Shown: positions 1 through 13,135 of the stretch, piece by piece | Layout: the number at the start of each line of letters is the position of its first letter | Position numbering within the stretch: the stretch's first letter is position 1 | From: Elusimicrobiota bacterium | GTDB lineage: Bacteria; Elusimicrobiota; Elusimicrobia; F11 | NCBI GenBank assembly: GCA_022072025.1 | Contig: JAJVIP010000010.1 | Span: 178,050 to 242,049, forward strand | DNA: 64,000 nt | Reading direction: 5' to 3' | Position numbers and translations under genes: made by a program | The notes under the pieces: model-generated | The model's database searches: none | What the model saw: only the letters and a program-made list of their open reading frames with translations | What the model was told of the DNA's origin: nothing

Positions 1-3000
1 GTCAATGGCCATATCCCCATATTGGACCCCTGCAGGAAACCATTTCAAAACACCTGGGGTGGACTTCAACTGAATCGCGTTCTGAAATTCGAGAATTAAT
101 CCGTTGTTCGGCCGGAGCGCCTCAATACACGGCCCAACAAGGTGACGATTGAAATATTGCGCGTACTTCACCCACAGACGGTCGGAATAACGGGGTGTTG
201 AATCTGGTCTATCAGCAAGCAGATTCTGACGTTGGACAAACCAAGGGTCAGGCGCAATGGGCGAACTCTCTAACTTTGATTCCCTCACGAGATAGCGCAC
301 CACCCAAGCATCAGGTTGTTCATCAGATGATGATCGAACCGCCTGCGCAATTTTTTCCATACACAAGTTATCGACCAGCCAGGAATATGAATTGTTTGCA
401 ATTCCAGCCCGAGCCGCCAAAAAGAGCATGTGAAGAAATGTCGCATTTGCATTTTTAAAGCCAAGTGGACGTTCTGGGTTGTTGTTGTAGAGATCGTGAA
501 GAAGGCGTTCATCAGCCGAATCCCACCTCTCAATGTCTTGATGAATAACCTCTTTCAGCGTATCGACAACAGGCTGGACAGGAGCTTCAAGCATGAGAAA
601 AATGGCATACAACCCGCCCAGCCTGGCCCTCCAAAGGTATTTGTCGGGATCAAAATCAGGTTCGATACGGGGATCAAAACCAACAGGAAGAAGCGGATTT
701 TTTAAATTTTCAAGAACAGCCCTCACAACCTCGGATGTTTTTGTCCCACTGCAAATATTCGCGGCAGATAAAGCCACATGATGATCCGGATCAGTCATTG
801 CCAAAAACAAGAGTCTGAGATCCTCTGGCTTGGCAGCATCCAACTCAGCGAAAATAAGAGCTTTTCGACGCTCCCAGTTTCGCCCCACAGGCCCAAGCCA
901 AACATACCTGCGGTAGCCCGCCTTTTTGGCCGTACCGTACGAGATCTTCATGCAAGAACTTAAATGAGAGAATTTCTCTCCGAGTCGCGAGTCAATCTCA
1001 GTCTCAAGAAAAGCCCTAATTTCACTCTCACGATCAAAGAGCGCCATAGCGAGTTGCTCCGTGGTTGCATTTTCAAATATCCTCGTGAAAGTTTGATCCA
1101 ATTCCTCCTCAAGGGTTGCAAGCGGCACGCCACGCAAGGATTTTTCTAGCGAGCGCTCGGCCACCCAAACCAGCCGTTGCTTGAATTCTTGAAGCATGGC
1201 TCGGTCTGAATTGCTTGCGAGCCGATTTTTTATGGTCCGTTCAAATAATTTTTGAACCTTTTCCTTCAGATCACGGGAATAATTCCGGGGGACATTCAAA
1301 TCCATATCCCCCCATCGGCCAGGGGTCAGATTGATCAACACGTTGGCCATTCGCTGAGCGAAGAAGAGAGTCAATATCACCGCTCCCTCCGTCCTTTCTA
1401 CGGCAAGCAACAACGCACGGTTCCCCCCGCGCCAATATCTCCACATCCAAATTCGCACGTACTCCAAAGAAAGGTTGACCGAAGCAGCAACACACAAGAC
1501 CAGCCCTCGGTTGTGGACGGCATCTGAGAAACCGGGCTCGGCCAGGAAGAGTTTCTGGCCTTCAAAGAGTTTATCGAGCGGGGTTTTTTCTTGGGCGAAA
1601 GGGGTCAGATAAGCCGGGCCTGCTTCCCGGTCCACCTTGGTCACCTTCGGAACGAAATCAATGACGGTGTGGCCGGCGTGGACGAGACGTTGAGTGAGAC
1701 CGGCAGAGTGGAAGCCACCGGCGACCAACAATGAAACCCCTCCTAACTCTCCTCGGCGAGTCGCCTTTGGCGACCTCCCCCCTGTGCGACGTGGGGAGGA
1801 ATATATAACGGACAACGATTGAAGAATATTTCGCGCCATTTTCTCATCGCGGATTTCGGCTTCTTCATAAAAAACTTCAAATTTCGATTTTCCATTTTCT
1901 ATTTTCGTCTTCTTGTACTCGTCCCACTCCTCTCTGGTCAACGCGAAATCCAGTAATTTTCTGGTGAGATATTGCCGTTTTCCCCTTTCCACCAGGTCCT
2001 GTTCATTCAATGTGGGTGAGAGGGCGGCATAGGTCTTATTTTCGACCTCACGCATCTCCCCAAAAAGTTTTTCCGCATCTATCCGTTCAGACAACGACAC
2101 ATAGCGCAGGTAATCCCGGAACGCCCGAAAAGGGGTGATGTCTATTCCATGCTTGCCGCAGAGGTCCCGCAAATAGCCATGAAAAGCGGTGTGATCCATC
2201 TGCCCCTTGCGGTACCACAGAGATTTCTCAAAAAACGATTGGGAGGCTTCTTTGGATAACTTCGGCAGGAGTTGAGAAAGAAGACGCGCTCGTTCAGCTT
2301 CAACTCGATTGAAATCGAGACTTGACTCAAGAGAGAAGGCTTCCCGAAAAATTTTCAACTGGGCCGAGTGGTTTTGGTCAAGGACAGCCCTTCGGGCTGC
2401 CACTTTTCCGGGGCCTGTATTCCCGGAAAAGTACTGCGAAGTGGAAACCCCGGACTTACGTCCGGGGCTTGTGCTGCAGTCAGGGAGAATTTTAATGTAA
2501 TCACCCAATGACATTGCACCTGCCCGGTAAGCGGTGACCGCACGGTCAAACGCCAAGAGCGCTGGATTCATGGATTTTTCTTTTTCGACTTCCAAGCGGC
2601 GACCATCATCCGCCCATTTCTTTTTCAAATCTTCCTGATGCGGCGCGGCCGAGCGGTACGCCTCGACGTTGGCGGCGTGGTGGGCGGGGTCGTCGACACC
2701 AAGAAGGGGTGGGAAGGAAAACGTATTTTTTTTAGGCGGACTCGTCATCAACGCATGAACCGGTCCCGATATTTTCCCTTGAGCCAGAAGAGTGTCCGCT
2801 GTTTTTTGGACGGCGGCTTGATCCGGAAAAATTTGGAATGCCTTTAAATCAATGGGGCCCGACGATCCTTCAAGAGCGACCTGGTCCACCATTCCTTGAT
2901 CGACCAGCGCCCGCACCGCCTTGCTGATGTTGGATTGGGCTTCGAAATTCTTATGGATATCTTGTATGAGAATAATGGCCGGGAATTTGGGATTTGGTGA

Positions 3001-3303
3001 TTTTGGCTGAGTCACTTTTCTAATACTGCCGAATTGAAGAAGCCCCTTAAGCGAATCATTTTCAAAATAATTTCTCCCGCTCTTCTTTTCGGGGGCGGGA
3101 ACATCCAACCCTGGTAAATTGAACATTCTTGGTTGGGGAGCGGGCAGAGCGGCCCATTGGCTGGAGTTGTTCTTATCGGAATTTGTCGCTTTCCTCCGCG
3201 CCTCCCACACATGGGTTTCGAATGAGTGCGCGAACGCGCAATTCGTCAAAAAATAGAGGAGGGCCAAGAGCACGATAAATGGTTGATTTCGGTATATTTT
3301 CAT
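1..3303 (-). CDS. Large predicted secreted protein of unknown function; N-terminus complete, C-terminus beyond left window edge (>=1100 aa); not in supplied ORF track
   Basis: Manual translation of the minus strand (codons occupying 3k+1..3k+3) gives one uninterrupted frame from ATG at 3303-3301 down to nt 1 with no stop. N-terminus MKIYRNQPFIVLLALLYFLTNCAFA resembles a Sec signal peptide. The track presumably omitted it because its stop lies outside the window. Only weak TraB/GumN-like motifs (QDIH, LLVAGGFHSAGL). Carries an in-frame copy of repeat family B at 2385-2482. Confidence 0.7.
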   Translation of the reverse strand, partial: MKIYRNQPFIVLLALLYFLTNCAFAHSFETHVWEARRKATNSDKNNSSQWAALPAPQPRMFNLPGLDVPAPEKKSGRNYFENDSLKGLLQFGSIRKVTQPKSPNPKFPAIILIQDIHKNFEAQSNISKAVRALVDQGMVDQVALEGSSGPIDLKAFQIFPDQAAVQKTADTLLAQGKISGPVHALMTSPPKKNTFSFPPLLGVDDPAHHAANVEAYRSAAPHQEDLKKKWADDGRRLEVEKEKSMNPALLAFDRAVTAYRAGAMSLGDYIKILPDCSTSPGRKSGVSTSQYFSGNTGPGKVAARRAVLDQNHSAQLKIFREAFSLESSLDFNRVEAERARLLSQLLPKLSKEASQSFFEKSLWYRKGQMDHTAFHGYLRDLCGKHGIDITPFRAFRDYLRYVSLSERIDAEKLFGEMREVENKTYAALSPTLNEQDLVERGKRQYLTRKLLDFALTREEWDEYKKTKIENGKSKFEVFYEEAEIRDEKMARNILQSLSVIYSSPRRTGGRSPKATRRGELGGVSLLVAGGFHSAGLTQRLVHAGHTVIDFVPKVTKVDREAGPAYLTPFAQEKTPLDKLFEGQKLFLAEPGFSDAVHNRGLVLCVAASVNLSLEYVRIWMWRYWRGGNRALLLAVERTEGAVILTLFFAQRMANVLINLTPGRWGDMDLNVPRNYSRDLKEKVQKLFERTIKNRLASNSDRAMLQEFKQRLVWVAERSLEKSLRGVPLATLEEELDQTFTRIFENATTEQLAMALFDRESEIRAFLETEIDSRLGEKFSHLSSCMKISYGTAKKAGYRRYVWLGPVGRNWERRKALIFAELDAAKPEDLRLLFLAMTDPDHHVALSAANICSGTKTSEVVRAVLENLKNPLLPVGFDPRIEPDFDPDKYLWRARLGGLYAIFLMLEAPVQPVVDTLKEVIHQDIERWDSADERLLHDLYNNNPERPLGFKNANATFLHMLFLAARAGIANNSYSWLVDNLCMEKIAQAVRSSSDEQPDAWVVRYLVRESKLESSPIAPDPWFVQRQNLLADRPDSTPRYSDRLWVKYAQYFNRHLVGPCIEALRPNNGLILEFQNAIQLKSTPGVLKWFPAGVQYGDMAID
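2385..2482. repeat. Palindromic repeat element, family B copy 1 (three consecutive hairpins), embedded in-frame in the 1-3303 CDS
   Basis: About 85% identical to 30598-30697. Hairpins: cagccc-ttcg-gggctg; acttttccgggg-cctgtat-tcccggaaaagt; ccccggac-tta-cgtccgggg. Translates in-frame as ...RKSGVSTSQYFSGNTGPGKVAAR... Confidence 0.6.
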
Positions 3304-3447
3304 CAAGAAACATTTAATCAAGAAGAGATTAAAACTCGATTAAGAACCTGTAAAAGAGTTGTAAAAATTCTCCCCTTTTGTAACACTTCGGCCCATGGAT
3401 ACCGTCGTAAATAAAGCCTGGGTGACAAGTTTGCCCCTCCCAAAACC

Positions 3448-4773
3448 ATGAAACTGGTCATTATCGGGGCCGGGCCGGCAGGCGAGGCGGCTGCCAAAAC
3501 AGCCAGGGCCCTTGGCTCTTCCCACACAGAACCCCTCGACATCACTCTCATTGAAAAAGAAGAGGTGGGAGGCTTGTGTCTCAACAAAGGCTGCATTCCA
3601 TCAAAAACACTTTTGGAAGAAGTGCGCAAACGCGTGCAAGGCGACCTTCCCATCACATGGCCGGAAATTCAATCCTTTAAAACAGAAGTTGTTTCAGGAA
3701 TTCGAGGCCAATTAGAAAACGCGTTTAAAACACAACGTATAAAACTGATCAAGGGATCCGCCCGGTTTAATTGGCCCTCCTCTCTTGAGATTGTGTCATC
3801 GAATGGAACCCAAACCATCCATTTTGATAAAGCGATTATTGCCACAGGAACCGCGTCTTTCTTCCCTCCCCCACTCGATCAATTTCGAGATCTTCTTTGG
3901 GACAGCGACCGCATGCTCAATATTTCTCACACCCCCAAAAGTATCATCATCGTGGGAGGGGGCGCCGTGGGATGCGAATTTGCCTGTCTGCTGAATGCCG
4001 CGGGGGCAAAAGTGACGTTGATTGAACTCAAAGACAATCTGCTCCCCGGAGAGGACCCCCAGATCGCGGAGGCCCTGGCCAAAATCTTTGAAGCCCGCGG
4101 CATGGTTATCAAAACAGGAAACAAGGTGGTCGCCGCAGAAAGAAATGAGCAGGGATGGCAATTGGCCCTCTCCAAAGGAGACATTCTCCAATCTGAAGAG
4201 GTGTTGGTGTGCGTGGGCCGACTTCCCGTTTATAAAGACCTTAATTTGGACTCCGCCGGAATTCGAACTGAAAACAACCGATTGGTTTTAGATGACCGTC
4301 TCCACACCACGAACCCCAACGTGTTGGCAGCAGGAGACGCCGCCACGACGCGATTGGCTCACGCGGCCGCGGTCCAAGGTGAGGTGGCGGCTATAAACGC
4401 TCTGGGAGGAAATGAACGGTTTGATGATTCCCTGACTCCTCGCTGCCTCTACAGTTGGCCGGAAGTGGCCAGCGTTGGGAAATGGAAATATCAGCTGGAG
4501 GAAGCCAACAAACCGGTCAAAACCACCCGGGCATTTTTCAAAGGATCATCGAAAGCCTTGGCGTCCAAGGAGGCCGAAGGATTTGTGCAAATTGTTTTCG
4601 ATCCCGACACAGGAAAAATTTTTGGCGCTCAAATAATCGGCCCTCACGCGACGGAACTCATCCACAACTTCTCCATCGCAATAAAAACACAAATGACTCT
4701 CAAAGATTTAAAACAAGTGATGTTCGCCCACCCCACCTTAAGTGAAGTGATTCGAGACGCCGCCCGAAGATAA
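3448..4773 (+). CDS. lpdA: Dihydrolipoyl dehydrogenase (E3 / glycine cleavage L-protein), FAD/NAD pyridine nucleotide-disulfide oxidoreductase
   Basis: N-terminal GAGPAG dinucleotide-binding motif, redox-active GGLCLNKGCIPSK disulfide motif, C-terminal dimerisation region; leads a lipA-gcv operon; TAATG stop/start overlap with lipA. Confidence 0.8.
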   Translation: MKLVIIGAGPAGEAAAKTARALGSSHTEPLDITLIEKEEVGGLCLNKGCIPSKTLLEEVRKRVQGDLPITWPEIQSFKTEVVSGIRGQLENAFKTQRIKLIKGSARFNWPSSLEIVSSNGTQTIHFDKAIIATGTASFFPPPLDQFRDLLWDSDRMLNISHTPKSIIIVGGGAVGCEFACLLNAAGAKVTLIELKDNLLPGEDPQIAEALAKIFEARGMVIKTGNKVVAAERNEQGWQLALSKGDILQSEEVLVCVGRLPVYKDLNLDSAGIRTENNRLVLDDRLHTTNPNVLAAGDAATTRLAHAAAVQGEVAAINALGGNERFDDSLTPRCLYSWPEVASVGKWKYQLEEANKPVKTTRAFFKGSSKALASKEAEGFVQIVFDPDTGKIFGAQIIGPHATELIHNFSIAIKTQMTLKDLKQVMFAHPTLSEVIRDAARR

Positions 4774-12654: not shown

Positions 12655-12897
12655 ATGCCTACAATTTTGTCAAAAAATGGTTATCGATTATTTTTTTATT
12701 CGAATGAAGGATCTGAACCACCCCATGTCAATGTTGAATATCAAGGAGCTGTTGCAAAGTTTTGGCTTAACCCTGTTGTATTGGCAAGTAATCTCGGCAT
12801 GAGTGCGCATAATGTTCGGAAAGCATCAGGAATTGTCCAACAACATGAAACCCACATAAGGGAGAAATGGAATGAATTCTTTAGCAAAAAGTCTTGA
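12655..12897 (+). CDS. DUF4160 family protein (putative toxin-antitoxin-like component)
   Basis: 80 aa; YRLFFYSNEGSEPPHVNVEY...AKFWLNPV signature of DUF4160; paired with a DUF2442 gene overlapping by 26 nt. Confidence 0.7.
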   Translation: MPTILSKNGYRLFFYSNEGSEPPHVNVEYQGAVAKFWLNPVVLASNLGMSAHNVRKASGIVQQHETHIREKWNEFFSKKS

Positions 12898-13135
12898 AAC
12901 CTATTTCGTCGCTACGCATATCAGCTTCGACGAAGATTTCATTTGCATCAAACTGGTTGATGGCCGGGAAGTGAAAGTCCCCATTGAGTTCTATCCCAAA
13001 ATCAAAAACGCCAAATCAAAACAACGCAAGAATTTTCGCCTGATTGGCATGGGAACCGGAATTCATTGGCCGGACCTTGATGAAGACCTCAGTGTTGAGG
13101 GACTGGTACTTGGACGTAAGGTACCTGAACGCTAA
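12872..13135 (+). CDS. DUF2442 family protein (partner of DUF4160)
   Basis: 87 aa; C-terminal GMGTGIHWPDLDEDLSVEGLVLG signature of DUF2442. Confidence 0.7.
   Translation: MNSLAKSLETYFVATHISFDEDFICIKLVDGREVKVPIEFYPKIKNAKSKQRKNFRLIGMGTGIHWPDLDEDLSVEGLVLGRKVPER

Follow-up and report, generated by a model that had tools for sequence, protein, structure and literature searches.

What is encoded by the first 3.3 kb of a 64,000-nucleotide stretch of an Elusimicrobiota metagenome-assembled genome (MAG; contig JAJVIP010000010.1, positions 178,050 to 242,049; hereafter, the window), for which the listing of open reading frames (ORFs) contains no ORF longer than 91 aa lying wholly inside positions 1-3303? 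Translation of the minus strand of this region yields 1,101 sense codons without a stop from an ATG at 3303 to the window edge, and the other five frames contain 25-61 stops each; given the nucleotide composition, the chance of a stop-free frame over this distance is ~4e-24. By design, the ORF listing omits ORFs that run off a window end, and the frame is absent from it for that reason. The original prediction, made from the letters of the window, had proposed precisely this, a real gene hidden by a stop-in-window rule, and re-examination of the frame found no stop codon; in ORF tracks of this kind, it is the largest genes that go unlisted at the edges of a window. Upstream of the ATG, the frame meets its first stop at 3340-3342, and a TTG at 3321, six codons upstream of the ATG, is an alternative start, but the relatives begin like the ATG version. 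We consider it reasonably probable (roughly 60%) that the frame is the 5′ part of a single 6.3-kb gene for a 2,097-aa envelope protein, in which an exported, membrane-tethered His/Glu hydrolase head is joined to a variable multi-enzyme body. The gene belongs to a large, undescribed and paralogue-rich family with an unusual architecture, a constant head on variable, giant bodies.

The full length of the gene was obtained from a public contig (L001; Logan SRR10609165_7928, 30 kb), found via the product of the neighbouring lpdA gene. L001 carries the same locus, shares 14,773 nt with the window at 100% identity throughout and reaches 6,553 nt further left, where the frame continues to a stop, giving a gene of 6,294 nt and a product of 2,097 aa rather than the ~1,100 aa initially assumed. 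Codons 1-1101 thus occupy positions 1-3303 of the window (minus strand), and the other 996 codons lie to the left of it. The same 2,097-aa protein is present in NCBI as MCG3204982.1, a "hypothetical protein" from an Elusimicrobiota MAG encoded on a 316-kb contig, with no relative at 90% identity. Given that the source is a MAG, that the middle of the protein has almost no relatives and that L001 may stem from the same reads and hence is not independent proof, the long frame could be an assembly chimera, a pseudogene, or a set of adjacent genes fused by sequencing error. We regard such an artefact as highly improbable, considering that the 2,097 codons are uninterrupted, that all residues invariant in the family are intact, that the same head followed by a long body recurs in 80 loci from 25 MAGs and in 150 database proteins, and that two Pfam domains score above their thresholds in the same frame.

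The protein consists of a signal-peptide-like leader, a conserved module of ~575 aa, a region of ~590 aa, a PALP domain, a cluster of transmembrane (TM) segments, a GNAT domain, and a tail with a hydrophobic segment. The leader (aa 1-25, MKIYRNQPFIVLLALLYFLTNCAFA; 3229-3303, minus strand) combines a basic n-region (K2/R5), an 18-residue hydrophobic core and a small-x-small motif (AFA) ahead of the module, and would target the N-terminus to the Sec pathway. The signal-peptide-like character recognised in the original prediction also appears, judging from the sequences, to be kept across the family: among 133 members with complete N-termini, 123 have K/R before the hydrophobic core and 111 have a small-x-small motif near the start of the module.

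The module itself (aa 26-600; 1504-3228, minus strand) was defined from the first homologue search, whose eight unnamed relatives aligned with the query only over its first ~55%. When the alignment of these relatives was used for an exhaustive HMMER search, 9,327 cluster representatives were retrieved at E ≤ 1e-3, of which 5,742 remained at E ≤ 1e-30, far more than the word-index searches (8 and 4 relatives, none for aa 601-1101). In all ~230 members examined (150 proteins among the matches listed and 80 loci), the module is N-terminal, and in the 150 proteins it starts at approximately residue 25-40, in products ranging from 553 to 6,013 aa. Across a set of 152 members, the median protein length is 1,952 aa, the module begins at median residue 28, the first TM segment follows at a median of 103 aa past the module, and the median number of further TM segments is eight. 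A scan of one genome per GTDB species identified 322 loci encoding relatives, and the sources of the best 80 of these are 25 MAGs, every one of them from Elusimicrobiota and carrying up to 10 copies. In each of the 80 loci, the module opens a very long ORF, of roughly 600 to >2,600 aa, although most ORFs run off the fetched flank, so that the short values are incomplete. Two loci (L039 and L076) contain tandem copies, with two heads in one 13-kb locus; the 64-kb window contains a single copy. In addition, two giant genes are found on one 40-kb contig, JBJXGI010000009.1 (L048 and L077). The heads of paralogues share a median identity of 47% within a genome, compared with 42.5% between genomes, and for 14 of 30 paralogues the closest relative is encoded in another genome; the paralogous heads are therefore old.

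Which protein superfamily does the head belong to? Searches of the 1,101 aa against Pfam and NCBIfam returned nothing, in agreement with the lack of a confident family assignment in the original prediction. The module has no Pfam or NCBIfam model, and for this reason its members are all annotated as "hypothetical protein." An AlphaFold2 model built from a nine-sequence alignment (predicted TM-score 0.66; core predicted local distance difference test [pLDDT] 70-95) shows six strands interleaved with helices and a ~315-aa all-helical insertion. The modelled core would be a parallel β-sheet flanked by helices, as in RRSP, PMT, HopBA1, Bcr135 and ChaN; HopBA1, ChaN, Bcr135 and PMT are listed together with RRSP as structures of the TIKI superfamily (PMC6254334). 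TraB, Ere esterases, HopBA1, ChaN and RRSP come out first in the fold search, and with Foldseek, HopBA1, EreC, ChaN and Bcr135 are near the top. Based on the model, the head (residues 26-600) most likely represents a new family, as yet without a name, of the TIKI/TraB/erythromycin-esterase/ChaN fold superfamily. The weak TraB/GumN/ChaN-like resemblance sensed in the original prediction thus holds up, on the strength of invariant motifs, the ranking in the fold search and matches to PF04187 just below threshold. PF04187 (ChaN, "Tiki superfamily") was matched below threshold by 5 of 9, 5 of 24 and 1 of 11 members in three samples, the best score being 27.1 bits against a gathering threshold of 27.7, for an alignment to positions 73-204 of the 213-position profile. 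The GGFH motif described below is the end point of these matches; the window protein itself does not match this profile. PF01963 (TraB/PrgY/GumN) was not matched in any Pfam scan of the window protein or of the 44 sampled members. Failing both thresholds, the head is filed in neither the ChaN nor the TraB family of Pfam.

The module contains several strongly conserved short motifs, two of which, QDIH and the GGFH core of VAGGFHSAGL, had been singled out by eye beforehand and proved to be present and to comprise invariant residues in the alignment of the 152 members, which otherwise are ~40% identical. Motif 1, Q114-D115-I116-H117 (2953-2964, minus strand), lies at the C-terminal tip of predicted strand β2 and contains a putative catalytic Asp-x-His; strand 84-90 of the model ends at the D of this motif, and D115 and H117 are each found in 150 of the 152 members, the remaining two having gaps. 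E145 of the ALEG motif (2869-2871), a putative catalytic Glu 28 residues after H117, is present in 152/152 members and directly follows model strand 114-119. The G202-V-D204-D205 motif (2689-2700) follows the fourth core strand (G202 in 152, D204 in 151 and D205 in 131 of the 152). Motif 2, G529-G530-F531-H532 (1708-1719), is a second GxxH, with G, G and H each conserved in 152/152. In the model, D115, H117, E145 and H532 all directly follow predicted strands, and D115-x-H117, E145 and H532 would thereby be placed at strand tips, where the 2His/2Glu site of the superfamily lies. In RRSP, this catalytic set comprises E3900-x-H3902, E3930 and H4030, and H85/E113 is the equivalent His-Glu pair of Bcr135 (PMC6254334); the spacing of 28 residues between H117 and E145 is the same as in both H85/E113 of Bcr135 and H3902/E3930 of RRSP. 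According to the mechanism described for Ere enzymes and RRSP, the His-Glu pair activates water (PMC6254334).

Two further parts of the module are distinctive. The all-helical insertion (aa 206-520; 1744-2688, minus strand) is located between core strands and has invariant residues of its own, E326, R338, W460, F478 and R485; by analogy with Ere enzymes, it may be a lid or a substrate-binding lobe. The module tail (aa 552-590, PK.TKV....G..YL..F.QEKTPL.KLF.G.KLFL; 1534-1650, minus strand) is near-invariant, with P552, L566, F569, K573, P575 and L585 present in 146-152 of the 152 members and hence among the most conserved residues of the family, yet has no confident predicted structure (pLDDT <50). 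It may be a linear motif, a docking site or a cleavage site.

Sequence comparison with the TraB/GumN family was performed with HHalign against a profile of nine sequences, E. coli YbaP and plasmid-borne relatives. R485...GGFH532 falls in register with RN...VGALH (P = 0.007; probability ≤5%), R485 being aligned with the conserved Arg of the "RN" motif. The match to YbaP alone was misplaced and insignificant. In TIKI1/2 and TraB/PrgY/GumN proteins (PF01963; for example, E. coli YbaP), the domain spans ~250-350 aa, compared with ~575 aa here, the difference in size being due to the ~315-aa helical insertion. Furthermore, motif 1 of the head is QDxH rather than GxxH, there is no significant sequence match to TraB/GumN, and, unlike in TIKI and TraB proteins, the head is joined to bodies that can run to ~5,400 further residues and is found here in Elusimicrobiota MAGs only (best 80 of 322 loci). 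Erythromycin esterases are soluble, cytoplasmic enzymes of ~400 aa. The head has no detectable sequence similarity to them (EreA/B/C, Bcr135/136), carries a leader, is part of a membrane protein and shows nothing pointing to a macrolide substrate.

Taken together with the leader, these features suggest that the head would be a His/Glu hydrolase, either a peptidase or an esterase, with its site of action in the periplasm or at the cell surface by analogy with eukaryotic TIKI, which is a membrane-tethered extracellular protease (PMC12329661). The same layout can be given a different interpretation, namely, that the head catalyses nothing but binds a ligand outside the cytoplasm, as a ChaN-like sensor domain that controls or localises the variable cytoplasmic domains in a receptor-like manner. 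Consistent with this, the only Pfam similarity of the head is to the ChaN haem-binding family, the order leader, head, TM segment and cytoplasmic body resembles that of sensor proteins, and one body contains a sigma-70 region 4 domain. We nevertheless find a sensor improbable. The PF04187 matches all fall below the gathering threshold and involve only the C-terminal third of the profile, and the invariant acid/His set argues for catalysis over haem binding: the putative counterparts of the catalytic 2His/2Glu set are essentially invariant in members that are otherwise so divergent, whereas PMT, a non-catalytic member of the superfamily, is without that motif (PMC6254334). Moreover, the bodies are huge and multi-enzyme, unlike ordinary output domains, and include methyltransferases, GATase, adenylate kinase, GH77, SNF2, S8, PALP and GNAT.

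Turning to the body, what does the hydrolase-like head carry in the protein encoded at this locus? Pfam analysis of the full 2,097 aa detected only two domains, both encoded to the left of the window. The PALP domain (PF00291, fold-type II pyridoxal phosphate [PLP] enzymes; aa 1189-1516) scores 104.7 bits against a cut-off of 35, and an SFK Schiff-base lysine motif and a GSGG loop are visible in its sequence; it is most similar to Thr/Ser dehydratases, yet falls far below every NCBIfam equivalog cut-off. The GNAT acetyltransferase domain (PF00583; aa 1748-1833) scores 38.5 bits against a cut-off of 20.7. Hydropathy analysis indicates, besides the leader, a TM cluster at approximately aa 1550-1680 and a further hydrophobic segment near aa 2000. 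Between the module and the PALP domain, two borderline hydrophobic segments, aa 600-618 and 641-659 (1327-1506, minus strand), have hydropathy values of 1.46-1.57, below the cut-off of 1.6, so that their TM status is uncertain, and they sit in the zone where relatives have their first TM segment. They are followed by a mostly helical region (aa 660-1101; 1-1326, minus strand), which continues to approximately aa 1188 outside the window and has almost no detectable relatives: no homologue of aa 601-1101 emerged from the word-index search, and only aa ~830-965 of the post-module region match two relatives among the ~230 fetched (~E 1e-9). An AlphaFold2 prediction for aa 601-1101 made without an alignment was unusable (pLDDT 37).

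The presence of the TM cluster and of the PALP and GNAT domains points to a membrane-anchored multidomain protein with an exported head. With cofactor-dependent domains of this kind in the same chain, the product is probably not a soluble secreted protein; the original interpretation was good in its guess of the family, but wrong in the length and probably also in the label "secreted." The head would be tethered to the membrane via a TM segment soon after the module, and the body, comprising the helical region, PALP, the TM cluster and GNAT, would probably be located at the cytoplasmic face. If one of the segments within aa 600-659 spans the membrane, the PALP and GNAT domains are cytoplasmic, which suits their cofactors, whereas if neither does, the PLP domain is outside the cytoplasm. 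A PLP enzyme outside the cytoplasm would be unusual.

Several observations weigh against an exported, catalytically active head of this superfamily on a membrane-anchored body. In the 2,097-aa protein, hydropathy analysis detects no confident TM segment between the exported head and the PLP-dependent domain. The Foldseek E-values are 0.35 or worse, and none of the sequence-level links is significant, with Pfam matches below threshold and profile searches of the PDB yielding no TIKI member; PDB sequence searches with the single protein, with the module profile and with a core-only profile minus the insertion produced spurious matches only. HHalign, in both global and suboptimal alignments, recovers the second motif but neither the first His nor the Glu, and no alignment method placed H117 and E145, which are invariant, 28 residues apart and each located after a predicted strand, on the reference motifs. 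The Pfam family closest to the head is that of ChaN, which is a binding protein rather than an enzyme. Finally, the restriction to Elusimicrobiota rests on the best 80 of 322 loci; as these were ranked by their resemblance to a query from Elusimicrobiota, the ranking favours the phylum of the query and does not establish exclusivity.

Is the variability of the bodies informative about the role of the family? A Pfam census of 24 mid-sized and 11 large members showed sparse, mixed domains, with most of the protein mass unannotated. The domains identified in bodies are PALP, GNAT, subtilase S8, inositol monophosphatase, dockerin, Rce1-like, methyltransferases, HEAT, GH77, AAA_5, GATase, SNF2, LRR, DUF218, DUF488, adenylate kinase, peptidase C26 and sigma-70 region 4. 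Nudix and GGDEF motifs had been suspected by eye in two family members, but neither was confirmed by Pfam. A constant head, a hypervariable body and many copies per genome are also what would be expected of polymorphic-toxin- or MARTX-like effector polyproteins, with a constant N-terminus for secretion or autoprocessing and variable C-terminal enzymes delivered to other cells. Indeed, RRSP, PMT and HopBA1, which the head resembles in fold, are domains of toxins or effectors, and giant mosaic proteins of related phyla have been linked to predation (bioRxiv 10.1101/2023.11.21.568195). In RRSP (the DUF5 effector of MARTX), PMT C1/C2 and HopBA1, however, the TIKI domain belongs to the variable part, as an internal or C-terminal effector, whereas here it is the constant N-terminal head, and neither MARTX repeats nor a cysteine protease domain was found in the Pfam scans, nor were secretion genes found nearby in the 80 loci. 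Clustering of 336 neighbouring ORFs from all fetched loci revealed no partner that recurs, be it a secretion system or an immunity-like gene, and PADLOC defence-system models had no match. The cargo recognised in the Pfam census consists of housekeeping-type enzymes and no known toxins, scans of 44 members detected no toxin domain, the bodies have a median of eight TM segments, and old paralogous heads, about half of which are closest to a head from another genome, misfit a rapid turnover of cassettes. A toxin-like role accordingly seems to us even more doubtful than a sensory one, and we judge each of these alternatives, including the artefact, less likely than a membrane-tethered hydrolase.

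The bodies resemble in several respects the mosaic giants of Omnitrophota and other PVC-group bacteria, which are likewise very long, studded with TM segments and equipped with assorted enzyme domains that normally are cytoplasmic, such as HEAT, AAA_5 and methyltransferases (bioRxiv 10.1101/2023.11.21.568195). The N-terminal regions of the Omnitrophota mosaic giants are described there as largely unidentifiable, and Elusimicrobia have been noted, in another study, as prone to huge proteins (PMC11573180). A term search of these giant-protein papers (bioRxiv 10.1101/2023.11.21.568195; PMC11573180) found no mention of a TIKI-like head, and our literature searches found no description of the present one. 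Elusimicrobiota and neighbouring phyla are known for an abundance of huge proteins that defy annotation, and the roles of these proteins are an open question, on which the present family has some bearing: thousands of them have in common a recognisable N-terminal domain of known fold, as predicted by the model, in which a hydrolase site is apparently intact, and a single construct of ~575 residues could inform a whole class of uncharacterised proteins. A more ambitious and, in our view, unlikely proposal is that the head defines a hitherto unrecognised, phylum-wide system in which the exported hydrolase processes, activates or docks diverse membrane-embedded multi-enzyme bodies; for example, an autoproteolytic cut at the invariant, unstructured tail (aa 552-590) would release or switch the cargo. 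If true, such a processing or docking head would offer a first functional entry point shared by the mosaic giants of Elusimicrobiota, and possibly by those of related phyla.

On one side of the gene, a 144-bp spacer (3304-3447), as originally reported, separates it from the divergent lpdA gene, which encodes dihydrolipoyl dehydrogenase (3448-4773, with the ATG at 3448) and opens a compact glycine cleavage and lipoylation cluster on the plus strand (3448 to ~10840; lpdA, lipA, gcvT, gcvH, gcvPA, gcvPB and lplA). Rfam searches, run at gathering thresholds on the whole window and at E ≤ 1 on the spacer, detected no glycine riboswitch or other family, and promoter and terminator scans performed no better than shuffled controls. 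On the other side, outside the window, a 101-aa ORF is located ~10 nt downstream of the stop of the 2,097-aa gene (L001 3248-3553, minus strand). It contains two CxxCxxC...CP motifs typical of 2x[4Fe-4S] ferredoxins and is missing from the called genes of the contig, in which an opposite-strand gene at 2821-3084 is called instead. Further left on L001 are a 258-aa Cys-rich ORF (2102-2878, minus strand) and a phage-integrase-family gene (958-2046, plus strand). A scan of the extended contig found no tRNA; the region 958-2878, with the integrase gene and the Cys-rich ORF, may be the edge of a mobile element.

Elsewhere in the window, two small genes that overlap each other, for DUF4160 (80 aa) and DUF2442 (87 aa) proteins (12655-13135, plus strand), are located between MazG-family and QueF-family genes. 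The same 64 kb also contain a second, different giant gene, a complete ORF of 8,690 aa (37887-63959, minus strand), which is without a TIKI-like head and has no meaningful Pfam match; judged by eye, its N-terminus appears β-rich and YD/Rhs-like.

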